In this document: positions 20,109-62,200 of the stretch, piece after piece
Position numbering within the stretch: position 1 is the first letter of the stretch
Layout of the letters: the number at the start of each line of letters is the position of its first letter
Assembly (NCBI GenBank): GCA_000165345.1
Contig: CM000429.1
Span: forward strand, 128,001 to 192,000
DNA: 64,000 nt
Direction of reading: 5' to 3'
Program-made: the position numbers and the translations under genes
Notes under the pieces: model-generated
What the model saw: the letters and a program-made list of their open reading frames with translations, nothing else
Database searches by the model: none
Told to the model about the DNA's origin: nothing

Positions 20109-23100
20109 CTAGTTTTTTCTTCTCATTCTTCTTTGTTGTTTATTTGATGGGCTTGGACTCGAACCTTTCTTATCCGAGAGGACTATTTCGCTTTCATTTC
20201 TGCTGCTTTCATCCTCTGAAGATTTTGATTCAGAAAAAATTGTTTCCAAAGCTGAACTACCATAATATTCCCTTTCAAACTTTACTGCACTGTCAAACCA
20301 TTCTTTAATTTCAAAGTAAGCCTTCTTTAAAGATCTTCTCAAATCCTTATTTTTCTCTCTAAATATTAACTTCTTCAATAATTTCATCAACTTTGTTCTT
20401 TTTGTGAAAATACTTGACTCTATGTATTCATCAGAGTAAATTAATTTGCTTAGTTCTGGATACCTCAAGCTATCTAATAAACTCATCATCTCTAAATCAA
20501 ATCTGTAACTGCCCAAGTCATACTCAAAACCTGAAATTAATCTATTATAGAAATCAAGCTTCATATCATAATAATCCAGCTTTTTAAAACCATAAATTCC
20601 GATTGGTTGCTCATCTTCACCTAGTTTAAACTTTGGTAAGTAAGTATATCCAAATCTTGACAAGATACCTCTTTCCTCTAACTCTTTAAGTTTCAAAGAA
20701 GAACTTGGTTTAACTCCACGGAAGTGTGGATAGAAATACAACTTATCAAGTACCTCTCTAACATACATCAACTTTGTCTTTTCCTCGTGAATCTTGAGTA
20801 AAATTCTCATCTTAAGCTCATCATTCTCATTTTCATCAATAATCTCATCCTCTGGCAATGCTACTCTATTTAGTACAACAGATAAGGATTTGCGGTGTCT
20901 TGAGATTTCTCTAATCAAAAAGGACTCCAACTTTAACAACTCTAACATTCTCTCCTTTCTATCAGCTACTGCAATGTATAAATCTCTAACATAGTCCTCA
21001 ATAATTGTCAAAGCTTCCTCAAATACTAACTTTACTTTGCCCTTAAAGTCTGTAGAATACTTGGAAGCCTTCTTTGACTTATCTGAGTCCTTGTCGCTCT
21101 TCTTCTTACCACCCTTAATTTCTTCTTCATCATCTCCCTCATCAGAATCCACAAAATCGCCATTCTTTGGCTCCTCTATATAATACCTTGTTGAAGCATG
21201 GTTGGTATCAATCAACTTCTTAAAGTCGGAAGCTTTCCTATCTCCACTAAAAATACCAAATGTCTCACTATCCAAAGTCTTAGATATCTCTGGATTCTTT
21301 TCAAAGTCATCGAGTTCAATTCGGGTAATATCAACATTACCAACTGCATGTGCATTTTGTAAAAGATAATCATTCAATTTCTCTAACTTGTCCAATTCAT
21401 CCAATATCTGAACTCCTATTCTCTGTCTCTTATCTAAAGACTCTAAAACCTTGGAGGTAACCTCATCTTCCAAAGAGCTAATCTCAACGTTAATCAAGCT
21501 TGAATCTCTTATCAAATCATCACAAGCATCCTCTAATTCTCTAAAGTTATCATGGCATTCCTTTCCAATCCTTTGCAACTCTTGAACATTATTTTCATGC
21601 TCATTCTCAACCACATTTTTCAATTCATCTCTATTCTCAAAGAAAGAACCAAACTTCTTATTATCTGGCTCACTTACATACTTTGAAATGTCAATTCCTG
21701 TATCTGATCCTTTTAAAGCACTTGAAACTATATTCACATTCTCCAAAAGTGCTTTTGTTCTAAGAACTGACTTAGACTTATTCAATTCATCCAATAACTT
21801 CTTCTGGGATCTAATATATTCATTTCTTTTTTCTTCATACCTTTTCAATAATTGTGCACTGCGCGCCAAGTGAGCCGTGATTTTTCCCGCCACCTCCTTT
21901 TTCTCCAAATCATCCGAAGTTTCAATATGGTCTCTATATTGAGCAAGAGTGCCTTCGAATTTATCAAAGTTTGAAACCTTGTCATCAATTGCAGAGATGA
22001 ATCTATATGGAGATGGAGCTTGAGAGTCACTAAGTTTCCATCCTGTTGTTAAGAAGTTTTCTAATAGATTTTTGTGTGGATAACTTAACTTTCCAAGGTA
22101 TCCATTTAGGTAGAAACTGTCTTTATCAGAATAATCGATATTGAATGATAAATCAGTAGCTAAATGATGAATTTTAGCAACACCATCAAAGTTTTCAACT
22201 AATTTAAATCCTGTTGCAGAAACTGGGAGTATTTTTTCATTATTTTTCTCTTTTAAGTAGATAGTTTTGGGAATAAAGAAAAGAGAATTTCCAAATTTGT
22301 TGAATAAAAATTCCCTATAAACTTCAGTATTTGTTCCAACATCTCCTCCTTGTTCTCCAAGACGTTGTTTGAAGTACTTTTCTTCTTCTTTTACATCAGC
22401 ATCTGTATATAGGTTTTCAAATATAAGTGTATGTAATGATAGCATTTGTCCAACAGTCATATTATTAATATCTACCAATGTATAATCATCGATTCTGTCA
22501 ATTACTCTCTTTTGGGAAGAAGTGGAGTATTCTGATCTCTCGAAAAGTAACTGAGAGGGAGACTTAATGTTGTTATATTTGTTAACTCTGGTTAACTTAT
22601 GGAAAGTAGTTGATGATGAATCTTGGTTATTTTCTGACTCTTTTTCGTCAATATTTAAGCTTCCAGTTCCAATAGAATTATATCTATTACCATGATCACT
22701 TCCAGTAATTAATTCATCAAACTGTTCTCCAATATCACTACCATCAGATCTGGTGTTATATCTATCGCCTTTATAGATTAACCTACCATGATTGTCATAT
22801 ACATCTTCTCCTTTAACAATCTTTTCATATGCATTAGTCATGTTAATAATAGAAGACTTCGAAATAGTATCAGTCCAAGCTCTACCTTCAATTGGATCAT
22901 AAGGAGATGGTAAAGAATTATCGAAAGGATCAAAGTTATCAAGAATCAGATTATCGTTGAATAATCCATCATTGACAAAGTTTGTAGCATTTGCAAATCT
23001 GTCAATTGGAGTACCAGACTTATATTTCTCATATTCATCCTTAAGAGCATCTCTGAGGAAATAAGAAATCTCAATACTTTTGGAAATTGGGTCACTGCTA

Positions 23101-23927
23101 GCTTCTCCTGAGACAAAACCAAGCTTGTAAGCTTCTCTTTCTCTAAGTTTAATAGAGTATAAGAGGAATTCCTTTTCAGTCATAACTGGACCAAGTGGAT
23201 TCTTTTCAAGATATTTACGACGATACTCATTATATACCTTTCTAAGTTTGTCATTACTTTTTCCAAGCATTTCCCAAGCTTTGAGATAGGCAGCATCAAT
23301 TTCTTCTTTAGAAGCATTAATTGGAACACGTGGCATGTGTTTGAGAGCTTCTTCAGGATCAAAGTCAAATTTGTCCATATCATCAAATAATAAGTACTTT
23401 GGTAAGACTCCATCAGCTTTTTTAGTGGTTTCAACGCCAAATAGAGACTTCATTTCTGTATCAGTAGCATTGAGTTCTTTCTTGACGTAATCCATAAAGT
23501 GTTTCTTCATCTTTTTCACCTCACCTAGAGTTGGTACTTGTCCTGTAACATTAAATACATGTTCTCTGAAAGATTCTCTCATCATTCTTATGCGAGCTTC
23601 AGGAGGAAGTGGAGCTAAAGAATCCTTAGTTAAAGTACGTTCTGGTTCGTAAGCATATGGATATTCTTTATACTTAGAACCAAAAGCTCTATCCTTAGCA
23701 TCTCCCTTTTCATAATCTCTCAATCCCGGAATAGTTCTTCCATAATAACCTCCTCCAATTGCACCAATCTTAACAACTTTCTCGCTATCTGCTGGACCTT
23801 CCTTTCCCCAACGATTAGTTGCAATATGTTCCAATGGAACAGTCTCCATTGGAAAATAATAGTCGTAACTCATTGCCAGCTCAAAAAGCATTGGCAAGAT
23901 TACTGCCAACTTACGTTTTGATAACAT
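20109..23927 (-). CDS. Large (1272 aa) hypothetical secreted protein with an N-terminal signal peptide
   Basis: 3.8-kb uninterrupted ORF with an ATG at 23925-23927. MLSKRKLAVILPMLFELAMS reads as a signal peptide. The protein is mixed charge and contains an acidic/lysine patch (GDDEEEIKGGKKKSDKDSDKSKK). No known domain was recognised. Confidence 0.7.
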   Translation of the reverse strand: MLSKRKLAVILPMLFELAMSYDYYFPMETVPLEHIATNRWGKEGPADSEKVVKIGAIGGGYYGRTIPGLRDYEKGDAKDRAFGSKYKEYPYAYEPERTLTKDSLAPLPPEARIRMMRESFREHVFNVTGQVPTLGEVKKMKKHFMDYVKKELNATDTEMKSLFGVETTKKADGVLPKYLLFDDMDKFDFDPEEALKHMPRVPINASKEEIDAAYLKAWEMLGKSNDKLRKVYNEYRRKYLEKNPLGPVMTEKEFLLYSIKLREREAYKLGFVSGEASSDPISKSIEISYFLRDALKDEYEKYKSGTPIDRFANATNFVNDGLFNDNLILDNFDPFDNSLPSPYDPIEGRAWTDTISKSSIINMTNAYEKIVKGEDVYDNHGRLIYKGDRYNTRSDGSDIGEQFDELITGSDHGNRYNSIGTGSLNIDEKESENNQDSSSTTFHKLTRVNKYNNIKSPSQLLFERSEYSTSSQKRVIDRIDDYTLVDINNMTVGQMLSLHTLIFENLYTDADVKEEEKYFKQRLGEQGGDVGTNTEVYREFLFNKFGNSLFFIPKTIYLKEKNNEKILPVSATGFKLVENFDGVAKIHHLATDLSFNIDYSDKDSFYLNGYLGKLSYPHKNLLENFLTTGWKLSDSQAPSPYRFISAIDDKVSNFDKFEGTLAQYRDHIETSDDLEKKEVAGKITAHLARSAQLLKRYEEKRNEYIRSQKKLLDELNKSKSVLRTKALLENVNIVSSALKGSDTGIDISKYVSEPDNKKFGSFFENRDELKNVVENEHENNVQELQRIGKECHDNFRELEDACDDLIRDSSLINVEISSLEDEVTSKVLESLDKRQRIGVQILDELDKLEKLNDYLLQNAHAVGNVDITRIELDDFEKNPEISKTLDSETFGIFSGDRKASDFKKLIDTNHASTRYYIEEPKNGDFVDSDEGDDEEEIKGGKKKSDKDSDKSKKASKYSTDFKGKVKLVFEEALTIIEDYVRDLYIAVADRKERMLELLKLESFLIREISRHRKSLSVVLNRVALPEDEIIDENENDELKMRILLKIHEEKTKLMYVREVLDKLYFYPHFRGVKPSSSLKLKELEERGILSRFGYTYLPKFKLGEDEQPIGIYGFKKLDYYDMKLDFYNRLISGFEYDLGSYRFDLEMMSLLDSLRYPELSKLIYSDEYIESSIFTKRTKLMKLLKKLIFREKNKDLRRSLKKAYFEIKEWFDSAVKFEREYYGSSALETIFSESKSSEDESSRNESEIVLSDKKGSSPSPSNKQQRRMRRKN

Positions 23928-29603: not shown

Positions 29604-30620
29604 TTAGAAAATGAGCGTTGATAACAAAACAAAAATGACTGGTATGTAAAGACTGGTCGAGACCTTAAAAGCAAAAGATGAATCATTTTTTCCAGAATCA
29701 TTTCCTGCATCTTTCATAATAGTTTCGTTGTGTGGGACAATATCATCAATTTCTTTGGTTTTATCATCTTCTGTTTCCTTGACAGAACTTTTTGTCTTAT
29801 TTTCAATATTTTTCGTATCAGGTTCAGTTTCTTTGGAATTCATTATTTCAATGGGCTCTGAAGTTGTAGTTGTACTGCTACTTGAAGTTGGTTTTGTGAG
29901 TAAATCAATGAACTTTTGACAAATTGAAGAATCTGGCTGGACATCGCATGGGCAACCGGGGTTCTTGTTATTTTTGTAACAACTACAGATGAGAGCATCC
30001 TCATCAGTGATTTGTTGATCTGCTGAGCATGGACAACCTTCCGATTCGGGATCTGTCACACATTTGTCCTGAATTGAACTTTCCTCAATAGAAATTGGAG
30101 TTAATCTTCTACAAGACTTTAATGTTACACAATGCTCGGAAAGCTCAGAATCTCCACTACATAAGCCTTCTTCCCCTAATGGATTTAAGAAGGAAGTACA
30201 ATTTGCATATGGGGTTACGTAAGTTAGTGGTGAAACAATGCACATTCTATCATGTTCTTCGTCCAAGCTGCTTAATCCACTTAAACATTTACATTCATCA
30301 GAGTCAGGTTTTGAGCAGAAGCAAGGAGGACTAGAAAATCCACTTTGTTGTGAGTCATAGCATGAACAATCTGATGGCAAGAAGTCGTAAAATGTTGGAC
30401 GAGTTTCTAATAGAGGATCACAAGGACATCCTGGGATTTGGGGAATTAAAGCACATAATAAGATGAAATTTGGTACTTTTGTGACTTCAGTATTACTATC
30501 TGAGTCTGCAATCCCGTTATCATCCTTATTTTGATGGCCCTCTTCAGATTCGAGTATTACATCTTGAGCTGTTGCTCTAAAGATAAGTTCAAAAAGAAAT
30601 AGAATGGCAAGTAATTTCAT
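29604..30620 (-). CDS. Cysteine-rich secreted surface protein (338 aa): signal peptide, Cys-rich ectodomain with a thrice-repeated GCPCD/GCPCS motif, Thr/Ser-rich mucin-like stalk, C-terminal hydrophobic tail resembling a GPI-anchor signal
   Basis: ATG at 30618-30620 with signal peptide MKLLAILFLFELIFRATAQ. About 30 Cys residues are present, including PGCPCDP, EGCPCSA and PGCPCDV. A stalk (TSSSSTTTTSEP) is followed by a C-terminal ...SSFAFKVSTSLYIPVIFVLLSTLIF tail, a small-residue omega-like region plus hydrophobic stretch. Confidence 0.7.
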   Translation of the reverse strand: MKLLAILFLFELIFRATAQDVILESEEGHQNKDDNGIADSDSNTEVTKVPNFILLCALIPQIPGCPCDPLLETRPTFYDFLPSDCSCYDSQQSGFSSPPCFCSKPDSDECKCLSGLSSLDEEHDRMCIVSPLTYVTPYANCTSFLNPLGEEGLCSGDSELSEHCVTLKSCRRLTPISIEESSIQDKCVTDPESEGCPCSADQQITDEDALICSCYKNNKNPGCPCDVQPDSSICQKFIDLLTKPTSSSSTTTTSEPIEIMNSKETEPDTKNIENKTKSSVKETEDDKTKEIDDIVPHNETIMKDAGNDSGKNDSSFAFKVSTSLYIPVIFVLLSTLIF

Positions 30621-48960: not shown

Positions 48961-49998
48961 TTACATTTCAAACTTTTCATTGGAAATTGAACTAGGATTT
49001 TCTATGGATGAGCTATAAAATTCAAAGTATTTATCAAAATCTCCAGACTCATTTATTTGTTCATTCTTCCGTGCTCTAATTGGAATCTTAGTTAATTCTA
49101 TTTTATATATTCTTGGCCACCTCTTACCAGTAACAAAAAGAACTGGGCCATTTAAGTTGGAAATCTTCTTTTCTTGATAGCTTGGATGATATGCAATTCC
49201 ATTAAGTACATCGTTAAGAATATCAAAGTGTTCTAATAACGTGCTTTTGCTTGGATCATAAATTGATTTCAGATTTGCAATTGATATACATTCACCTGTT
49301 TCAGGACTAAATTCAACAATCATTTGCGATTGGAATATATTTCCCCAAATAGTTTTTGTTTCTGGAATATATTCCATTTCATTTACAAAATGCATGGGCT
49401 TTCCAAGACATCTCAACATTATTACCTTTTTAATTGTGACTTTATTATCTGAAGAATCAAAATCTGGAACATTAAGCTCAAAAAGTTGATCAGAACCAGA
49501 TGTAGCCCATATTCTTGATTCATTATCTGATGTGAGACCCCATCCTGTTAATGGTATTGAATAACGTTTCACTACTGAAAGATCAAGAGAATATCCAAAC
49601 ATTACTCTACTTGTCCAAGTTAACTGGTATATATGGCCATTCAAAGTTGCAATTCCTTCACCCCAGTTCCTCTTTGGTAAAATCTTGTGTTGAAGATTCT
49701 TCATACTTGGGAATTCAATCAGTTTAATAAAACTTCCTTCAATTAATCCTGCACTTTCTATAAGAATTGTCGAATTTAGAAACATTAAACCTTGGGTGAA
49801 TGGATTTTTGTTATATTTATAAGATGAATCATTTTCAGAAAAAATATGATTTTCTGGTATATGGTAGTGGGGGAATTCTTGTAATATTTTCACGCTGTAA
49901 ATATTTGGCAACTGAACTGAATGTAATGAATCCTGGGATAAAGAAAAGTTCCATTTAATTATTAAGCATGAGAATAAGAATAGTCCCAACAAAAACAT
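48961..49998 (-). CDS. Glutaminyl-peptide cyclotransferase (glutamine cyclotransferase), plant/bacterial beta-propeller type, with an N-terminal signal peptide
   Basis: Conserved QC blocks are present: NPFTQGL, ESAGLIEGS (ESTG-like), NWGEGIATLNGHIYQLTWTS (FGEGxT...QLTW), GWGLTSD, and SGSDQLFELNVPDF (SDGS..L..xDP). The ORF-track start at 50040 is a GTG. The first ATG is at 49996-49998, giving MFLLGLFLFSCLIIKW as a signal peptide. Confidence 0.7.
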   Translation of the reverse strand: MFLLGLFLFSCLIIKWNFSLSQDSLHSVQLPNIYSVKILQEFPHYHIPENHIFSENDSSYKYNKNPFTQGLMFLNSTILIESAGLIEGSFIKLIEFPSMKNLQHKILPKRNWGEGIATLNGHIYQLTWTSRVMFGYSLDLSVVKRYSIPLTGWGLTSDNESRIWATSGSDQLFELNVPDFDSSDNKVTIKKVIMLRCLGKPMHFVNEMEYIPETKTIWGNIFQSQMIVEFSPETGECISIANLKSIYDPSKSTLLEHFDILNDVLNGIAYHPSYQEKKISNLNGPVLFVTGKRWPRIYKIELTKIPIRARKNEQINESGDFDKYFEFYSSSIENPSSISNEKFEM

Positions 49999-50362
49999 AA
50001 TATTTTCAATATTAAAGCGTGTTATCTTTTCAATTTTCACCTCAAAAACTCTTCAAAAATTAAATTTTATAATAAAATGGAATATCATTAATTCGCATTA
50101 CGAGGTATTGCCGGGCAATCAAAATTTAAATATATATAACTGTAATTCTGTAATACATGTAAATACGTAAGCGATCAATTAAAAAAAAAAAAAAAAAGAA
50201 GTTAAAGAAAAAGTTAATTTAATAAGAATCTTAAAAAAGTTGATAAATATAATAATTTATAATACTGAAGTCAATTTGTCCAGTTTATTTCTCTTTATAA
50301 TTAATAAAAAAAAATGAGTTAATTTATTTGCCCATGAAGAATATTTAAATTTATTTAACAAC

Positions 50363-52682: not shown

Positions 52683-53233
52683 TCAACATTTCAGGATGTA
52701 ACTCTTATTTCTATACTTAGCCATCCTACTTTTTACTCTTCTTATATCACTTTTTCCCTTTCATTTCCTCCCTCTCCCCTCTCTCTTTCTCTCATTCTTC
52801 ACTCTCATCTTTTTTTCCTAAGGTACTATCTTGATATTCCAGTTAATGTCAAAATAAAAATTTAGGGAAAGCCCGCCCAAACTTAATTACCAAGATTTTA
52901 ATTTCGCATGTTTTAAAAGTACAAGGTTGAATGTGGGGAGAAGAATTAAATACAGAGGGAAATTAGGAAAAAAAAGGAAAAGAACTTATATTTAAATAAA
53001 TATTTATTTATTTATTTAAATAGATCAAAAATTCAGAAAGTTAAAGTTTTATTCATAAGTTAAGAAATCCACAGGATAATATTATTAGAGGAAAAGAGAG
53101 TTTCAAAGAGAAATAAGAAGAGAAGCTCAAGTCTAAGGAAATAGGATTTTAATATAGATACTTGATTATAATATGGAAAAATTCTTAATACAGTAAGGTA
53201 GTGGAAGTTTTTGACAGAATCTGTGAAAAAAAA

Positions 53234-56200
53234 ATGAGTCAAAGAGCAAAGACTTCATTGATCAACTTTTTGTTGGAAGTGGTACCTTCAGCATTGGATT
53301 GTTCCAGACAACAATTAACGTCATTATTGACAGGAAAAGGTGATGAACAATTAAAAAGGTTTCTAAGAGAAACTGATGTTCACTGTTTAATTGTAGGTAA
53401 AGAAAAAGTTATGGAATCTAATGTAGGACGAGAAACCAATTCTGAAGGATTAAATTTAAATGATACTATTTCTGGAGAAAATAGATTGGATTATAATGAA
53501 GAAGTTGTACAACATCAAGTATTTATTGAAACATTTATGACTTCTAGATGTTTAAAAGCTTCATTAATGGTTTTTGTCAAAAATCCTGGGTTTCAAGTTT
53601 CAGAAGATGGAATTATTACAACAAGTGTTGATAGAGGAGCTGAAACATCTGAGTCTGCTGGAACTGATTCACCTGAAGATCATACAAAAACTACTGGAGT
53701 TGTATCCCATTCTAAATCTTTATCTTCTAGTTTACAGTGTATTCAATTAGGATTTGTTGGTTCACAACTTACTCCATACGAAGTTTTAAACCAGTACTTA
53801 CAATTTGCTTTTACTCCTTTATTAGATGCATTAGGTAATGCAAAAACTACTTCTGGAACAATTGGAGGTGAAATTGGAGATTCTGTAGATTCTACAGAAT
53901 CTGGATCTCATTTAGGTCTTGAGAACATTCAAAGAAAGGTTAATGAATTATGTTTGGCATTACAACAAGGTCAAGATGATAGTATGATCCCAATGGTCAA
54001 GTTAAATTTGGATCCAAAAGTTGCAGAATATGCTAAAGAATATAAAAATACTGGTAAGATTAATAATATGGATGAAATTATTGAAGATTCTACATTCTTA
54101 TCTTCACTTCAAGTTTCTATTACTCAATGGATTAGAGAAATTCAATCATTAGCAAGATTTCAAAGAGATATTGGATTAAGTGTTACATCTGAAGTCAAAT
54201 TTTGGTCATCTTATGAAAGAAGTCTTCAACAAATCTTAAAACAAGTTCAAAGTCCTGAAGTTGAATGGTCATTATCAGTATTACGCCAATCTAAGAAATT
54301 CTTAGCTGCAATTTCTTTAGAAGTTGATACTGGACTTAAACAATCCATTGAAAAAGTACAAAATATTAATACTTTAATACATGATATCCCAATTAATGAC
54401 TTACTTGTCGCAACTTCTATTGATGAAATTACTTCTGCTGTTACATTATTCTTCCAACAATTAAGAAAAATTAAAGGAGCAGCTTCTTATCCTATTTCAA
54501 GAACATTCCAACTTGTTGAAGTTTATTCTAATGATATGACTAAACAAATGTATAAAGTTCTTCAAAATAATCCAACCACATCTTTAATGCTACTCGAATT
54601 CCCTGTGTTTGAACATTTAGTTAATGGTTGTAATGAACTTGGACAAGTATGGGAAGATGAATGGAGAGAACTAAAGGATGTTATCAGAGATTTAATTAAA
54701 AAGAGAGGACTTTCAGAAAGAGCTCATCCAAAGATGGATTTTGCTCATGTTCCATTAATTCAACGTTTAAATGATATTGTCATATTTAGAAAACAACATC
54801 AAAAATTGAAAGATACTCTATTAGAACTTTTATCCATCCAAACTTCAGCATCTTCTAATGAACAAACTGATCAAAACCCTTTATCAGCTTTAGGTATTGA
54901 ACAAAACTCTGGAATTGATGCTTTACAATCTCTTGCAAAAAAAGATCTACAACAAGCTTATGCTTGTGTAGCTAATATTAACATACTTGATCTTTCAGCT
55001 ATTGGATTAGAAGCTTGGGAAGCTGGAAAACAAGCTTATAATAACAAAGTTGATGCTTCTGAGACATTATTGATTAAACAACTTAGAGAACAATTAAGTG
55101 GATGTGGTAATACTTTAGAAATGTTTAGAATACTTGGAAGATATAATCCTTTATTCTTTAGACCTAGAATCAGAAGTGCTGTGGAAGAATATCAAAGCAT
55201 TTTATTAGAAAAAGTTCAATCTGATTTTCAATTATTACAACTTAGATACCAAAATCCATACCAAAGAAGTGCAGCATCTCAATTTTCTTGTCTTAGAGAT
55301 ATTCCTAATATTGGAGGAATGTTAGTTTGGTCTCATCTACTTCAAGAAAGGATTCAAAGTATATATTTCAAGCTTGAAGATATTTTTGGTCCAAATTGGG
55401 AATTTGAAAGCCAAGGACATAAAGTTAAGACTGATGGTGATCATATTACTTCAAAAATACATCCAAATCAAATTGTTGATTTCTGGTTACAACAAAGAAA
55501 AGATGATAAATTGACTTATGATTTAAATAAACCAGTTTTAGGATTAATGAAAAGTGGTAATTTATCCACTACATCTTTTATATTGGCTTCAACTATTGAT
55601 TCTGGAATATTATCATTATTTAAAGATCTAAGAATTATTCAGTCTTATGCTTATAGAGTTCCATATAGTGTCAAAGTTTTGGCTGATGAACTTAAGTTAT
55701 TATATCCTTATATTTCTCATCTAAACTCACTTTGTATTAATTGGATGAGAATTGCAACTCAATTAGAAGTTGAACCAGGAAAAAGAATCTCTCCTTTATT
55801 AACTCCATTTCGTCAAGAAGTATATAATATAATACAAGAAGGAATTTCTTTAAGTTGGTCATCTGATAGACTTGAAGGATTTATAAGAAGATTTTATGAT
55901 TCTGTTGATACTTTAGAACAAAAATTTGAAGCTGTTATGACTTTAGATGAACAACTTTCAGTATTAGTTTCTCAAATTAGGAATATTCAAGTATCTAAGG
56001 GACTTGGAGAACTTGTTTCTCATTTAAGTAAAATTGGATCCAAATGTCAAGAATTTCAATCACTTTTATTGGCATATAGAATTGATTATTTATTTTATTG
56101 GGATCAAGTCATACAATCATTTCTACTTCCAAAACTTAAAGAATTTGTTCAATTATGGATTAACCAATTCATATCAATTGGAGGAGTTGATCATGAAGTA

Positions 56201-59200
56201 TTTTCCCAAGATCATCCAATTTTATCTCCAAATAATAGTAATAATAATAACAATAACAATAATGATAATCCAAATCATACAATTCTTGGCTCTTTATCCA
56301 GTACAATTATTACTTTACAACTTAAAAATCAAAAAATTACTTTAAATCCTTCACTTGAAGATGTTAAATCTTTATGGTTAAGACGATTCCATCAAGAAAT
56401 TACAAAAATTACAAATCTTCCAAGAGTTACCAATATCTCAAGTATTCCACAAACATCTCCTTTTTATAATGATATCTCCAAAGCTAAAGAAGAATTAGCA
56501 ACTTTAATTTCTGGAAAAAATGAACAAATTGATGAAAATCCTGTTAATTATGTAAATAGTGATGATATTGGATCAGTTAAACATATTCCACTTGATCATA
56601 CATACAGACATTTATTTCTATTTCTACCAAAATCTCTTTTAGAATGGAGTTATAAAAGTATTGATGATGTTTTTTCTTCTATTAAAGTTTCTATTGATTA
56701 TTGGACAAGATTTGAAGCTTTATGGTTTGTTGAATTAAGTAGTGTTACTGGAAAATTGAATAATCTATTACAATGGCAACAATTAGTGAAAGAAATGAGA
56801 AATTTAAGAACAACATTTAGTTCTAATGAAGATTTACGTTGGTTTTGTAGTAAAATTGCTTTGGATACATCTGCTATACAAGCAAAAATCATGAGTAAAT
56901 ATGATGGTTTAGCTAGAGAAATTCTTCATTTATATGCATCCAAATTAAATGAACAACTTTCATCTTATTGGACTTCAATTAGTACTATTAAACAAACATT
57001 GGATAAATTAGAACCATTCTTGGCTCAATGGTTGATTTGGATTGATAAGAATTCTTCAAGTATATCTACTTTAGTCTTAAAATCTGAAAATATTCCAACA
57101 AAAGGTTCTGTTATGACTAATTTACCTCCAGGAGGAGAAGCTTTACATTCTTCATTAATTGATTTAGTATCTAAAATGGTATCAGCACAAGATCAAGATC
57201 AGAAGATTGGATCTGATTTACCATTATTTTCTGATGGACAAAAATTTCTTGAAGTTCAAAGATTTACATTTCCTAATGATTGGATTTGGGTTGAACAATT
57301 TGAAGGTGAATATGATAAATCTCATCAAAGATTAGAACATTGTTTTGCTAATGTAATATTTCCAAGTAGAAGAAAAATTGAGAATTATCTTAAACTTTGT
57401 TTACAATTAATATTTATGTCTTATCAAGAACTATTATCAGAATGGACTCGATTAAGAGGAATAACATTTGTTAAGAATCCTTTCTTAATGTTAGATCAAA
57501 TTGGAGTAATTGAAAATAAAGTCAATGTTTTACGTCAAGATATTGAATCATTTAATATGATTTTTAAAGCTTTTAAATTTGATTCTTCTTGGATTGATAC
57601 TGAATTAAATAAAGTAACAAGTGAAACATTTGATACAATTCTACGTGATCTTAAAGACTTTAAAGAGATATGGAATCAATTAAATGTATTCTTTGTAATG
57701 ATTAGTGAATATAAAAGAATGTTATGGACAGAAGTTAATGTTAAAACACTTAAAACTAATTTAGAGAGTTTAATTTCGAATTTGAAATCAATACCAGTTA
57801 AATATAGACAATATGATGCATTTGAACAATTACAACATGATGTTGAAGGATATAATAAAAATATGGGTTATATTTCTAGGCTTAAAGCTGAGTATATGAA
57901 AGAAAGACATTGGAAATTATTATTGAGTAAAGTTATTTGGCATGAAAAGACGAGTAATTCAGGATTAGAATCATCATCTACTGAAGGAGGAGCAGGAATG
58001 GGAACTGGAGCAGAAGGAATTCAGTCCACAAATCAAGAAGAAAAATCCACAAGTAATATTGAAAATGATCAAAGCCAAAATATTCAAACTTTAACTAGTC
58101 TAACTAAAACAGGAATGAAAAATTTAAGATCTTCAAGATCGATGAAATTTTCATCCATGAGTAGTTCAAGTATTTTTTCTATGTCAATATTCTCAACTTT
58201 AACTTTAGGAGATGTTTGGTCAATTAATTTTGATGCATCTTCAGCTATTATGTCAGAAATATTAGCTAAAGCTCAAGGAGAACATGGATTAGAATCATAT
58301 ATTCAAGGTATGAAAGAACTTTGGAATGGATTTGAAATCGAATTTACTGGACTTCCTAATAATCCTAATACAAAAGTTATTAAGAATTGGGATATTATGT
58401 TAACAGCAATTGATGATCATTTAAGTGCTTTACAAAATATGTCACTTTCTCCATTCTATGAAATCTTTCAAGAAGAAAGTCAACTTTGGACAGAAAAATT
58501 AACAAAACTTAGATTTACTTTAGATCTTTGGATGGAAACACAAAGAAGATGGATATATTTACAAGGAATATTCTTAGCTAGTACTGATATTGCTAATCTA
58601 CTTCCTCAAGAATATAAAAGATTTCAAACTGTTGATGCTGAAGTACAAGGATTATTAAAGAAATCTCAATCAAGACCTAAAGTTATTGATCTTCTTACTT
58701 TTGAAGGTTTAACTAAATCATTAGAAAGAATTAGTGATTATTTGAATAAGATTCAAAAAGCACTTGGTGAGTATTTAGAGAAACAAAGAAGTATGTTCCC
58801 AAGATTTTACTTTATTGGTGATGAAGATTTATTAGAAATGATTGGTAATGGTAAAGATATTACTGTTGCTCAGAGACATTTTAATAAGATTTTTGCAGGA
58901 ATCACATTCTTAAAATTTCAAGATCTTATGGATGAAAATATTGATCAAAATATACAGGGAAAGAAAAATAATGGAAATAGAAATAATCAAAAAGATGAAC
59001 AAATTGAAAGTATGATTATTGGTATGGGATCTAAAGAAGGTGAAGTCATTCATTTTAAAGATCCTATTCCAATATTAAAAGATACCTCTTTAGTAGAATG
59101 GCTTGGTAAAGTTGTACAAGCTATGCAAATTACTTTAAATGATTTAATAGGAAAAGCAATAGAAGATATTATTTCAAATTTTGGAATGTCTTCATTTACT

Positions 59201-62200
59201 GAAGATGATCATATTCTTTCAGAAAAATTAAGATCTAATTTTGAAAAATATCCAACACAAGTACTTTTAGTAGCTTGGATGTCTTGGTGGACAAAATTAA
59301 CAGAAGAATCATTTTCATCAGGAACAAGTACAAAACAATTACAAGAATTTATACAAAGAATACTTTCTAGATTGAGTGATATTGTTGCAACTTTGGAAGA
59401 AAATACATGTCATAAAATTAAATATAATCAATTAATTGTAGAATTTGTACATGAAAGAGATGTTTTAAGTCATTTAATTGAACAAAATGTAACATCTAGT
59501 CAAAGTTTTCATTGGCTTCAATATATGAGAATGTATTGGATGAGTAAAGATTGTCAAAAAAATCTGAAAGATCTTGAAATGATTGGTGAATTTGATAATG
59601 ATATTATTGTAAGAACAGCAAATTCTGCTTTTATTTATGGTTATGAATATCTTGGTATTCCAGAAAAATTGGTTCAAACTCCTTTAACTGATAGAACTTA
59701 TTTAACTTTAACTCAAGCTTTACATATGAGACTTGGTGGAAATCCATTTGGTCCAGCTGGTACTGGTAAGACAGAAACTGTTAAAGCTTTAGGAAATCAA
59801 TTAGGAAGATTTGTTTTAGTTTTTAATTGTGATGAACAATTTGATTTTACTGCAATGGGAAGAATTTTTGTTGGTTTATGTCAAGTTGGAGCTTGGGGTT
59901 GTTTTGATGAATTTAATAGATTACAAGCAAGAATATTATCAGCAGTATCAGAACAGATTTTAACAATTCAAACAGCATTAATAAAGAATAGTAATACTGT
60001 AGAACTTTTAAATAAGACAATTCCAATGAGTCAAGATGTTGGTATATTTGTTACAATGAATCCAGGTTATGCTGGAAGATCAGAATTACCTGATAACTTA
60101 AAACATTTACTTAGAGAAATTGCTATGGTAGTACCAGATAGACAAAGAATTGCTGAAGTAACTCTTTTTGCTCAAGGTTTTCAATTTGGTGAAATGATTT
60201 CACGTCAAATTGTGACATTATTTGAACTTTGTCAATCTCAAATGACAAGTCAACCACATTATGATTTTGGTTTACGTTCAATGAAATCAGTACTACGTTC
60301 AGCTGGTAAGCTTAAAAAATCTGCAATATCTGAGAATAAAGAAGCATTGGATGATCCACAAAAACTGGTAATATTAGAGCAACAACTAATTATTAGATCA
60401 ATATCATCAACATTATTACCAAAATTAGTTTCAACTGATGTTCCTTTATTAACAACATTATTTCAAGGAGTTTTTCCTCAAGTTCCATTTGAATCTTTGA
60501 ATGATTCATTAATGGTAGAACAAGTCAAATTGATTTGTAAGAGAAATTCTTTAGAAGCAACATCTCAATGGTTGGATAAAACATTACAACTTTTTGAGAT
60601 TCAAAAATTAAATCATGGTATAATGTTAGTTGGATCAACAGGTACTGGTAAGACAACAGTAAGAAAGACTTTATTAGAAGCAATGGATACAGTTCAAGGA
60701 TCTAAAACAATAAGTTATGTAATAGATCCAAAAACTATTGATAAAGAAAGTTTATTTGGGAAATTGAATCCAGTAACGTTAGAATGGACTGATGGTGTAT
60801 TTACAGCTATATTAAGAAAAATCATTAATTCCTCTGATAATAATAATAATAATAATAATAATGATCAAACAGGATCAGGAGGAGTTGGTGGGATTAATAA
60901 GAAATATTGGATAATATTTGATGGTGATGTAGATCCTGAATGGGCAGAGAATTTGAATTCTGTATTGGATGATAATAAACTTTTAACTCTTCCAAATGGT
61001 GAAAGATTAGAACTTCCTCCTTGGGTTAGAGTAGTATTTGAAGTACATTCTTTAGCAACTGCTACATTAGCAACAGTTTCTAGATGTGGTATGATTTGGT
61101 TCAATGATGAGATTATTTCTGATGAAATGTATTTTACTTCATTTTTATTTAATAAGATCAAGATGGGAAATAATACAATTAATAATGTGAATACTGGTCC
61201 AAACTCTTCTAATACTGGAGGAGGAGGAGGGGGATCTTCAAAAATTTCAGAATCTGCTACTTCTGATCAACTTGGTGAAGGAAGTGATAATATAGGTAAT
61301 AATACAACTGGTATGGAAGAATTTGAATCAGCTGAAGGAACAGGAATTGAACAAAATTTAGAAACCTTATTAAGAAATAAAGCATATTCAATATGGCAAT
61401 CAATATTATTCAAAGATTCATTTGGTTCAAAATGTCTCTCATTTGCATCAAAAAGACCTCATACAATGGTTTTTACAAGAATTCGAGTCTTAGAAGCTGC
61501 ATTTTCATTACTCAATAGTTCTATTAAACTATTATTAGACTCTAATTCTACTATGGGAAATGGTAAATTACCACCAATGGATTCTTTAACAGAATTCTTC
61601 TCTCGTTGGCTTATTTGGTCTTTAATTTGGGGATTCTCCTCAAGTATGAACCTCTCTGATCGAATATCTTATACTAAAGAAGTTATCTCTATTGTTACAT
61701 TTACTGATCTTCCACCAATGGAAGATGAAAATATTTCTATTCTTGATTTCAAAGTTGTTATTCCAACAGGAGAATGGAGAAAATGGAGTTTAGAATGTAA
61801 AGAAACTGAAGATCTTCCTCTTAATAAAGTTCTTGATTCAAATGTTATTATTGAAACTGTCGATACCCTTCGTCATTTTCAAGTATTACATGCTTGGTTA
61901 CATGCTCATCTTCCTGCAATATTATGTGGACCTCCTGGTAGTGGAAAAACTATGACATTATCATCAGTATTAAGAAGTATGACAGATGTTGATATTGTTT
62001 CATTAAACTTTTCATCAGCTACAACTCCTGAAATATTATTAAAAACATTGGAACATTATTGTGAATTTATTAAAGCTCCAAGAGGATGGATATGTCGTCC
62101 AATGGTACCAAATAAATGGTTAGTAGTATTCTGTGATGAATGTAATTTACCAGAACCTGATAGATATGGTACTCAAAGAGTTATTATGTTTATAAGACAA

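Follow-up and report, generated by a model that had tools for sequence, protein, structure and literature searches.

What is the function of a protein whose sole annotation on Cryptosporidium parvum chromosome 1 is "signal peptide region containing protein"? The question arises at positions 29604 to 30620 of the window (the whole stretch of 64,000 nucleotides that was analysed), where the initial annotation had placed a 338-aa protein. The ORF listing bears out these coordinates, with an uninterrupted 338-aa ORF on the minus strand. Its product is an exact match to C. parvum EAK88503.1/QOY43563.1, and the computed molecular weight of 37,102 Da agrees with the CryptoDB header (cgd1_660, CM000429:157604-158620(-), 1017 nt, 338 aa, 37.1 kDa; PMC11039866 supplement). 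The ORF is cgd1_660 of C. parvum chromosome 1.

29604..30620, minus strand: cgd1_660, complete single-exon CDS, 338 aa plus stop (ORF listing, exact protein match, CryptoDB header and molecular weight).

The gene is single-copy and restricted to Cryptosporidium, and no paralogue was found in the window using tblastn. The local gene order, which runs from the dynamin gene cgd1_580 to cgd1_640, cgd1_650, cgd1_660 and cgd1_670 and on to an ABC transporter gene, is kept across the genus. Orthologues in related species were found throughout the genus, and 14 that span it, including those of C. andersoni and C. serpentis, which are both gastric, were aligned. A first search gave no match in C. muris or C. 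andersoni, but absence from gastric species is refuted by the syntenic orthologues in C. andersoni and C. serpentis. The same layout, namely a signal peptide, a Cys-rich head, an S/T stalk and a GPI-type signal, is seen in 15 of 15 sequences. The head is made up as follows.

29895..30479, minus strand: Cys-rich head, residues 48-242, 195 aa, 22 invariant Cys, pI 4.2 (alignment of 14 orthologues).
30285..30455, minus strand: 8-Cys module 1, C56 to C110 plus C112 (in-register alignment with module 2).
30063..30284, minus strand: central region, residues 113-186 (orthologue alignment).
29919..30062, minus strand: 8-Cys module 2, C187 to C234 (in-register alignment with module 1).

The head thus consists of a 6-Cys centre flanked by two 8-Cys 'GCPC' modules that are homologous to each other. 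The general spacing is C-x8-CxC-x13/17-CxC-x8/12-CxC-x7/8-C, with the pattern C-x8-GCPC-x17-CSCY-x12-CFC-x7-C in module 1 and C-x8-GCPC-x13-CSCY-x8-GCPC-x8-C in module 2, and the module alignment includes invariant P, G, D and S in addition to the eight Cys. The Smith-Waterman score for module 1 against module 2 is 71. Of 2000 full shuffles none reached this value, and of 2000 shuffles with the Cys fixed 16 did. The central region contains single cysteines (C127, C141, C154, C164 and C170) and an invariant sequon, N140-C-T142, and residues 113-147 are almost totally invariant across the genus.

The initial annotation had estimated about 30 cysteines, and the actual count is 22. It had also reported a thrice-repeated GCPCD; GCPC does occur three times, but only two copies are GCPCD, the third being GCPCS. 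The units PGCPCDP, EGCPCSA and PGCPCDV are all present. The 22 cysteines include seven CxC motifs, and neither CC nor CxxC occurs. When the head domain was shuffled (n=20,000), the probability of at least seven CxC was 0.003, that of having no CC and no CxxC was 0.004, and that of even one GCPC was 0.01. None of the 22 Cys and none of the three GCPC motifs varies among the 14 orthologues genus-wide.

The length of the head is also constant in the 14 aligned orthologues, with zero indels, and its identity to C. parvum is 85-97 % in the intestinal species and 69 % in the gastric species. Few sequences in its neighbourhood are as conserved as the head. Relative to C. andersoni, identity is 69 % for the head, 54 % for the ABC transporter, 42 % for cgd1_670 (compared by identity) and 29 % for cgd1_650. 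Relative to C. canis, dN is 0.033 for the head, 0.46 for the stalk and tail of the same protein and 0.33-0.38 for neighbouring genes, with dS saturated. Head dN values are 0.03-0.10 and omega is 0.013-0.08, again with saturated dS. As synonymous sites are saturated, the constraint is at the protein level, and it represents very strong purifying selection that is confined to the head.

The initial annotation could recall no family with this cysteine spacing, and the searches agree, as no significant Pfam, PDB or distant homologue was found. The complete protein, its two modules taken singly, the central region and the orthologue from C. andersoni were scanned against Pfam-A, and no family was significant. 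There was no match to the Pfam families EGF, hEGF or Laminin_EGF at E up to 1-10, and no significant Pfam match to 6-Cys (s48/45), CFEM, TSP1, PAN/Apple or other catalogued Cys-rich surface domains. The best Pfam match, Metallothio_Euk, involved only module 1, and at 13.4 bits (cut-off 22, E = 0.079) this resemblance to a metal-binding family is not significant. Searches of the PDB with the head sequence and with head and module profiles found nothing relevant up to E = 10. A HMMER search with the head against 1.84 billion representative proteins recovered, besides the cluster of its orthologues, nothing but a spurious match to P0014, a prokaryotic repeat protein that lacks Cys. The 8-Cys module profile brought up one candidate and no match in a word index of 5.8 billion proteins, a result that carries no weight either way. 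AlphaFold2 produced no usable model with either the full-length alignment (mean pLDDT 36.3) or the head-only alignment (mean pLDDT 36.1). Judged by the Pfam, PDB and HMMER searches, the head has no detectable relatives outside Cryptosporidium, and it defines a family of Cys-rich domains that Pfam, the PDB and AlphaFold2 do not cover.

The regions that flank the head are listed below.

30567..30620, minus strand: signal peptide, residues 1-18, presumed cleavage between ATA and QD (h-region, small -3/-1 residues, orthologues).
30480..30566, minus strand: acidic N-terminal segment, residues 19-47 (alignment of 14 orthologues).
29679..29894, minus strand: Ser/Thr mucin-like tract and variable Lys/Glu/Asp-rich linker, residues 243-314 (orthologue comparison).
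29607..29678, minus strand: GPI-attachment-signal-like C-terminus, residues 315-338 (rule-based check, 15 orthologues).

A signal peptide, a TSSSSTTTTS mucin-like stalk and a hydrophobic tail following small residues had all been proposed, and each is recognizable in cgd1_660. The N-terminal signal-peptide-like segment is MKLLAILFLFELIFRATA, followed by QD. On inspection it has the n/h/c layout, in which the h-region is hydrophobic (KD about 2) and positions -3/-1 hold small residues, and it is kept in all 15 sequences. Although the segment drifts in sequence, it is hydrophobic in all orthologues, and Gln19 and Asp20 just downstream are invariant. These two belong to the acidic segment, where Q19, D20, L23, S25, E27, G28, N31, D34, N35, G36 and D39 are invariant in the 14 orthologues; on our own reading this segment contains a DxDxDG-like loop that may resemble a calcium loop.

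The S/T tract (TSSSSTTTTS in C. parvum) is present in all 15 sequences, though its length varies: intestinal species have 5-15 residues, C. serpentis has 14 and C. andersoni 29. Residues 243-314 are just 25-50 % identical in distant species, omega for the stalk region is 0.64 relative to C. meleagridis, and the five differences between C. parvum and C. hominis all fall within residues 243-338. The linker holds a conserved short motif, VPHNxTIMKD (295-304). The sequon N298-x-T300 within it was considered as an invariant feature, and this was ruled out by N298D in C. hominis.

At the extreme C-terminus there is an omega candidate, S315, in an S-x-A arrangement (S315-F-A317), then a spacer, FKVSTS, and the terminal hydrophobic segment LYIPVIFVLLSTLIF, which is 15-16 aa long in C. 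parvum and is preceded by small residues. Our own rule-based script, applied to the 14 orthologues and C. hominis, found in 15 of 15 sequences a hydrophobic end of 12-17 aa (KD 1.9-3.1) with 0-3 residues beyond it, a spacer of 4-10 residues and at least one small-residue omega/omega+2 candidate. This GPI-type end is kept even though local identity is only 12-50 %. S315 is invariant in the 11 intestinal orthologues and A317 is kept in at least 90 % of the 14; the surrounding region has diverged. GPI attachment, O-glycosylation and disulfide formation in cgd1_660 are predictions from sequence, and in the accessible literature we found no experiments on its localisation, GPI (PI-PLC, ethanolamine-glycan), glycosylation or disulfides. 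A GPI biosynthesis pathway has been predicted in Cryptosporidium by genomic reconstruction (PMC9713705).

The stage at which the gene is transcribed has been documented. In sorted asexual stages the log2CPM for cgd1_660 is 4.4, and females reach 12.4 in vitro and 12.2 in vivo (logFC 8.0), so that the female-gamete transcript is about 255-fold above asexual stages (Tandel 2019, PMC6877471). In bulk samples the log2CPM is about 1.5 in sporozoites, about 3.3 at 24 h and about 10.3 at 48 h, and cgd1_660 is in the top-500 list of genes common to females only (PMC6877471). The pattern is like that of COWP1 (5.2 to 16.1, logFC 10.9) and COWP8 (1.4 to 14.8, logFC 13.5), but, on the other side, cgd1_660 is not in the Tandel et al. 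supplementary R-code file with the curated Fig. 4B oocyst-wall gene set (PMC6877471). The protein was seen in excysted oocysts by TMT-MS (PMC12548878), and three peptides (14 % coverage) were recovered from large vesicles derived from sporozoites (PMC11039866). Published data therefore indicate transcription essentially limited to female gametes, with COWP-like induction, and protein in oocyst and sporozoite preparations. We note that detection in vesicles is also compatible with a sporozoite-surface protein translated from maternal mRNA.

At present the annotation of cgd1_660 is that of a hypothetical protein, its overall architecture is a familiar one, and we infer its function. It is probably a GPI-anchored surface glycoprotein of the macrogamete and the zygote-to-oocyst transition that binds a conserved parasite partner, rather than a variable host-facing antigen. 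On entering the ER, the 22 cysteines would form 11 disulfides, the stalk would become O-glycosylated, and a GPI anchor attached at about S315 would replace the last 23 or so residues. A rigid acidic head would then be displayed on its stalk, either facing outwards from the macrogamete/zygote membrane or facing the lumen from the membranes of wall-forming bodies. There it might bind a conserved parasite-derived partner, at this point purely hypothetical, during development from zygote to oocyst, and could link the membrane to the nascent oocyst wall or tether sporozoites to the wall. The initial annotation had suggested an O-glycosylated, disulfide-knotted, GPI-anchored surface antigen or wall protein. 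The sequence layout accords with this, but 'surface antigen' fits poorly because the head is highly conserved (omega 0.013-0.08) and the mRNA is female-gamete specific, and 'wall protein', or more broadly oocyst-formation protein, fits better.

It is unlikely that cgd1_660 is instead a sporozoite-specific surface ligand, with maternal mRNA stored and then translated in sporogony to give a GPI protein for excystation, gliding or host attachment. Vesicles that excysted sporozoites shed and lysates of excysted oocysts both contain the protein (PMC11039866, PMC12548878), sporozoites contain almost no transcript, as expected for a message that is stored and then used (PMC6877471), and it has been proposed that in Cryptosporidium female transcripts for sporozoite proteins are inherited maternally, among them that of the GPI-anchored gp40/15 (bioRxiv 10.64898/2026.09.01.748511). 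However, near-invariance of the head across gastric and intestinal hosts and tissues is unusual for a host-facing ligand exposed to antibody, GP60, as a contrast, being described as highly variable and immunodominant (PMC11411101), and there is no expression in the asexual stages that produce merozoites, which invade the same cells (PMC6877471). The F-RBP motif CAMCAACAR is also not in the cgd1_660 CDS, though this argument is weak as just 27 of 57 targets carry the motif.

Gamete-recognition proteins commonly evolve fast, and a head omega of 0.013-0.08 is at variance with a female-gamete receptor for male recognition or fusion, an analogue of Plasmodium P47 or of GPI egg proteins, that has no post-fertilisation role. 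Such a receptor would account for the abundant, female-specific transcript (PMC6877471) and the predicted outer-leaflet display on a stalk, and conservation of the head implies a specific, co-evolving parasite partner. Nevertheless, the protein is still present in oocysts that are mature or excysted, past the time of need, no male partner is known, and we regard this explanation as quite improbable.

A further alternative concerns only the mode of anchoring. In a tail-less type I membrane protein the hydrophobic C-terminus would be kept as a transmembrane anchor, not replaced by GPI. The C. meleagridis orthologue is annotated 'integral membrane protein', Phobius and DeepLoc treat cgd1_660 as a membrane or TM protein (DeepLoc: membrane, 0.997; PMC11039866), and in some orthologues K, H or NK follows the hydrophobic stretch. 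We consider this very unlikely, as the stretch has a length of only 12-17 residues, frequently includes Pro or Gly and has just 0-3 residues after it, the conserved small-residue S-x-A and polar spacer upstream have the layout of a GPI signal, and the corresponding biosynthesis pathway is predicted in the genus (PMC9713705).

Finally, a metal-binding (metallothionein-like or Cu/Zn-sequestering) protein with the CxC motifs as thiolate ligands in place of disulfides, suggested by the seven CxC motifs, which are above chance, and by the sub-threshold Metallothio_Euk match of module 1, is extremely improbable, given that this match is due to Cys spacing alone, that a protein with a signal peptide folds in the oxidising secretory pathway, that an even number of Cys (22), a Cys content of only 11 % and the numerous aromatic and hydrophobic residues that are invariant are typical of a disulfide-stabilised fold rather than of a metallothionein, and that no metal-binding homologue was found among the 1.84 billion representative proteins.

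The preferred reading, a GPI-anchored glycoprotein of the female and zygote surface, has parallels in known systems. The P25/P28 proteins of Plasmodium (e.g. Pfs25) are small, secreted, transcribed in female gametes, GPI-anchored and displayed after fertilisation, with about 22 Cys (11 disulfides) in a head of four EGF-like domains, each having 6 Cys with a single CxC; their conservation is good, and they serve as transmission-blocking targets. The overall layout, Cys count and female-stage transcription of cgd1_660 are similar. However, the modules of cgd1_660 each contain 8 Cys with three CxC and are joined by a 6-Cys centre; the protein has an S/T stalk, no Pfam EGF match and no sequence or profile match to any solved chain in the PDB, and the likeness is one of analogy, not homology. 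COWP1-9 are likewise secreted, Cys-rich, expressed nearly only in female gametes with large induction, and present in oocysts. COWPs are large soluble proteins with tandem Cys-rich (type I) or His-rich (type II) repeats and no GPI signal, whereas cgd1_660 is a single-domain protein of 338 aa that is predicted to be membrane-anchored. Judged by the exhaustive HMMER search with the head, in which the cgd1_660 orthologue cluster was the only true match, the COWPs are not detectable relatives.

GP60 (gp40/15) shares with cgd1_660 a signal peptide, a Ser/Thr tract and a GPI-type C-terminus, and both occur in the same sporozoite vesicle preparations (PMC11039866). In Cys-rich domain, variability and stage expression the two are opposites: GP60 lacks a Cys-rich domain, is described as more polymorphic than any other gene in the genus, and is expressed highly in sporozoites, merozoites and male gametes and weakly in females (PMC11411101). 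Metallothioneins are similarly dense in CxC, and module 1 has the weak similarity to Metallothio_Euk described above, but cgd1_660 is secreted, not cytosolic, has a far lower Cys fraction and contains many conserved hydrophobic and aromatic residues.

Cryptosporidium transmission needs oocyst formation, which is reportedly also needed for sustained infection. To our knowledge, few female-stage surface molecules are known in this genus, and we know of none for the female side of fertilisation. As cgd1_660 is abundant and female-specific, predicted to be surface-displayed and genus-restricted, with a head almost invariant from gastric to intestinal species, it is a candidate for functional study. 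More speculatively, and doubtful at present, the head, with its duplicated 8-Cys module, could be an unclassified disulfide-rich fold that acts as an essential macrogamete/zygote receptor, either as the female-side fertilisation partner or as a membrane organiser of wall assembly. Were this true, the near-invariance of the head genus-wide would make the protein a target, like Pfs25, for blocking transmission in all of Cryptosporidium.

A conserved sequence is also found upstream of the gene.

30728..30801, minus strand: conserved non-coding block lying 108-181 nt upstream of the ATG (candidate element of the promoter or 5'UTR).

The core of this block, TTCGAGTAAT..ACAAGCGCCCGAG, occurs once in the window and is identical in six intestinal species despite saturated synonymous sites.

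The ORF at window positions 29604-30620 (minus strand) runs for 338 uninterrupted codons in DNA that is AT-rich (~30 % GC) and dense with long ORFs without introns. Its product (computed mass 37,102 Da) is an exact match to EAK88503.1 (C. parvum Iowa II) and QOY43563.1 (IOWA-ATCC), and the 90 % cluster also takes in C. hominis, C. tyzzeri and C. meleagridis. The gene is cgd1_660, already annotated but with an uncharacterised function, at ~163 kb on chromosome 1. This assignment is consistent with the gene order in the window, namely dynamin (cgd1_580), cgd1_590, ..., cgd1_640, cgd1_650 (annotated CpLSP family), cgd1_660, cgd1_670, ..., ABC transporter. No paralogue was found in the window.

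Regions of the cgd1_660 protein (encoded on the minus strand)
Residues 1-18: signal peptide, presumed cleavage between ATA and QD; Q19 and D20 invariant
Residues 19-47: acidic segment; core N-x-D-D-N-G-x-x-D invariant
Residues 48-242: acidic head (pI 4.2), holding all 22 Cys
Residues 243-252: S/T tract, TSSSSTTTTS
Residues 253-314: variable Lys/Glu/Asp-rich linker with a single conserved short motif, VPHNxTIMKD
Residues 315-338: C-terminal end; S-F-A, spacer FKVSTS, then LYIPVIFVLLSTLIF to the last residue

The feature is real, and its structural reading in the initial annotation was largely right: the signal peptide, the TSSSSTTTTS stalk and the hydrophobic tail after small residues are all in the translation. 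The counts needed correction, with 22 Cys in place of ~30. The reported triple GCPCD is a triple GCPC (PGCPCDP, EGCPCSA and PGCPCDV), followed by D in only two units and by S in the other.

The Cys pattern includes seven CxC, with neither CC nor CxxC. Shuffling the Cys-rich part 20,000 times gave P = 0.003 for at least seven CxC, P = 0.004 for the lack of both CC and CxxC and P = 0.01 for even one GCPC. The pattern is therefore real and beyond chance; each element is also kept in the orthologues. The head is internally duplicated, C56-C110 matching C187-C234 with 8 of 8 Cys in register and shared P, G, D, Y and S residues (consensus C-x3-P-x3-G-C-P-C-x13/17-C-S-C-Y-x8/12-C-x-C-x7/8-C). The module-versus-module Smith-Waterman score of 71 was reached by 0 of 2000 full shuffles and by 16 of 2000 with Cys positions fixed. 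Nowhere is the protein more invariant than in the 6-Cys centre between the modules. The Cys count being even, 11 disulfides would be possible, and the Cys of the head may well be disulfide-bonded.

After the signal peptide, residues 19-47 (window 30480-30566, minus strand) carry the invariant acidic motif QDVIL.S.EG..N..DNG..D. Speculatively, its N31-x-D-D-N-G-x-x-D core resembles calcium-binding loops of the DxDxDG type, and the invariant Gln19, as mature N-terminus, could be a candidate pyroglutamate.

The Cys spacing had been described as unlike EGF, TSP1 and oocyst-wall Cys-repeat types, and the searches agree. Pfam-A scans of the full-length protein, of each module, of the centre and of the C. 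andersoni orthologue found no significant match; the best, Metallothio_Euk on module 1, scored 13.4 bits (cut-off 22 bits). Apart from the orthologue cluster, an exhaustive phmmer search against 1.84 billion representative proteins gave a single match, a prokaryotic repeat protein that is free of Cys and spurious. PDB sequence and profile searches were empty to E = 10. Judged by sequence, cgd1_660 lies outside every catalogued domain family, its head captured by neither Pfam nor PDB. The low AlphaFold2 confidence (pLDDT 36 in two runs) is expected where an alignment has almost no variation.

Orthologues, which the initial annotation had proposed to look for, are present across the genus: in C. 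meleagridis, chipmunk genotype I, C. canis, C. felis, C. xiaoi, C. ryanae and four further assemblies. The first impression that the gene is missing from the gastric clade was wrong; the orthologue loci there (L007, 6671-7786, and L008, 6643-7689, both minus strand) had been missed by a word-indexed protein search. The order ABC, two small genes, cgd1_670, cgd1_660, cgd1_650, cgd1_640 is kept in every species examined. The head is exactly 195 aa long in 14 of 14 sequences, with 22 of 22 Cys invariant. Its identity to the C. parvum head is 85-97 % among intestinal species and 69 % among gastric ones; stalk and tail identity in the same orthologues falls to 12-50 %. Against C. andersoni, the 69 % of the head compares with 54 % for the ABC transporter, 42 % for cgd1_670 and 29 % for cgd1_650; against C. 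ryanae, the figures are 86 % (head), 57 % (cgd1_670) and 42 % (cgd1_650).

By the Nei-Gojobori method, dN was only 0.03-0.10 in the head, compared with 0.46-0.74 in the stalk/tail and 0.33-0.58 in the neighbours. With synonymous sites saturated (pS 0.7-0.9), omega against C. meleagridis was 0.084 (head) and 0.64 (stalk/tail), and against C. canis it was 0.013 (head). All five differences between C. parvum and C. hominis lie past residue 252. The constraint is therefore at the protein level and limited to the head, which is under very strong purifying selection.

For the proposed GPI-type C-terminus, a script of the textbook layout, not a trained predictor, was used (hydrophobic end 12 aa or longer, no more than 3 residues after it, spacer of 4-10 residues, omega in {S,N,D,G,A,C}, omega+2 in {G,A,S,T,C}), and 15 of 15 sequences pass. 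In a region otherwise diverged, S315 is invariant in 11 intestinal orthologues and A317 is kept in at least 90 % of all 14 sequences, as would be expected of a conserved omega site. A GPI pathway has been predicted for Cryptosporidium by genomic reconstruction (PMC9713705), and cgd1_660 is probably GPI-anchored; retention of the C-terminal segment as a tail-less transmembrane anchor is a minor and doubtful alternative. Some 15-20 residues ahead of the omega site, the linker holds a conserved short linear motif, DDIVPHNxTIMKD (window 29721-29750, minus strand, region of residues 291-300), whose NxT sequon is kept in 14 orthologues and altered by N298D in C. hominis.

Transcription of cgd1_660 is female-restricted. 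In sorted parasites, log2 CPM was 4.4 in asexual stages and 12.4 (in vitro) and 12.2 (in vivo) in females (logFC 8.0, ~255-fold), and in bulk samples ~1.5 in sporozoites, ~3.3 in 24 h culture and ~10.3 in 48 h culture (Tandel et al. 2019, PMC6877471). The gene is on the sheet of top-500 genes that in vitro and in vivo females have in common, and asexual stages do not share; COWP1 (5.2 to 16.1) and COWP8 (1.4 to 14.8) follow the same pattern at higher levels; cgd1_660 is absent from the supplementary R-code file holding the hand-curated oocyst-wall list (PMC6877471). The protein is carried into oocysts, having been quantified by TMT-MS in excysted oocysts (PMC12548878) and identified by three peptides in large vesicles that sporozoites shed (PMC11039866).

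As a whole, these data are probably best explained by a GPI-anchored macrogamete/zygote-to-oocyst glycoprotein that binds a conserved parasite partner. Its stalk would be O-glycosylated, it would be displayed at the surface of the macrogamete/zygote or on the membrane of wall-forming bodies, and the partner would be bound in oocyst formation, as a membrane-to-wall link or sporozoite tether. Extreme conservation and absence from merozoite-producing stages argue against a variable host-exposed antigen. A ligand specific to sporozoites and made from maternal mRNA, by a form of translation now proposed for Cryptosporidium, is unlikely; a fertilisation receptor is less probable still, and a metal-binding protein very unlikely. 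An essential role in oocyst formation or fertilisation, if borne out by localisation or knockout, would make cgd1_660 considerably more interesting.

Plasmodium P25/P28 are female-transcribed, GPI-anchored proteins with ~22 Cys, displayed after fertilisation. They are the closest functional analogue; their EGF architecture was looked for in cgd1_660 and not found. The COWPs share its expression pattern but differ in sequence and anchoring. GP60 resembles it in stalk and GPI but is the reverse of it in variability and stage. By analogy, the macrogamete/zygote glycoprotein would work like a stalked, GPI-anchored, Cys-rich, stage-specific surface protein, an overall architecture of known kind.

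Upstream of cgd1_660, a 74 nt non-coding block (window 30728-30801, minus strand; 108-181 nt from the ATG) occurs once in the window. Its core, TTCGAGTAAT..ACAAGCGCCCGAG..GGAAATGCAAATAATGCA, is unchanged or almost unchanged in six intestinal Cryptosporidium species, even though synonymous sites are saturated; in C. andersoni it is retained only in part. The block may be a female-specific promoter or 5'UTR element.

Other features of the window
48961-50040, minus strand: glutaminyl cyclase gene (Pfam Glu_cyclase_2)
53189-64000, plus strand: very long ORF, at least 3604 codons, running past the 3' end of the window
20109-23927, minus strand: cgd1_640, 1272 aa
25238-29059, minus strand: cgd1_650, 1273 aa
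24853-24933, minus strand: tRNA gene in the spacer between cgd1_640 and cgd1_650
5646-13229, minus strand: secreted protein of 2527 aa, probably cgd1_590

The long ORF leaving the window explains the empty ORF listing beyond 50 kb, and the tRNA (RF00005, 53 bits) is the sole Rfam match in the window. The adjacent cgd1_640 and cgd1_650 both begin with signal-peptide-like segments and lack any Pfam domain. Identity between the two is only 23 %, and both are fast-evolving, with 29-63 % identity from species to species; cgd1_640 has been reported as a small-granule protein co-purifying with DG8. The C-terminal part of the probable cgd1_590 is Pro/Ser/Lys-rich and locally GC-rich (43 %), with repeated 'EELGGEGDDIKG.DTS.SSLDLTKEKE' units and a Pro-rich tract, and the F-RBP motif CAMCAACAR occurs four times in a cluster at 5688-6178 on the coding strand.
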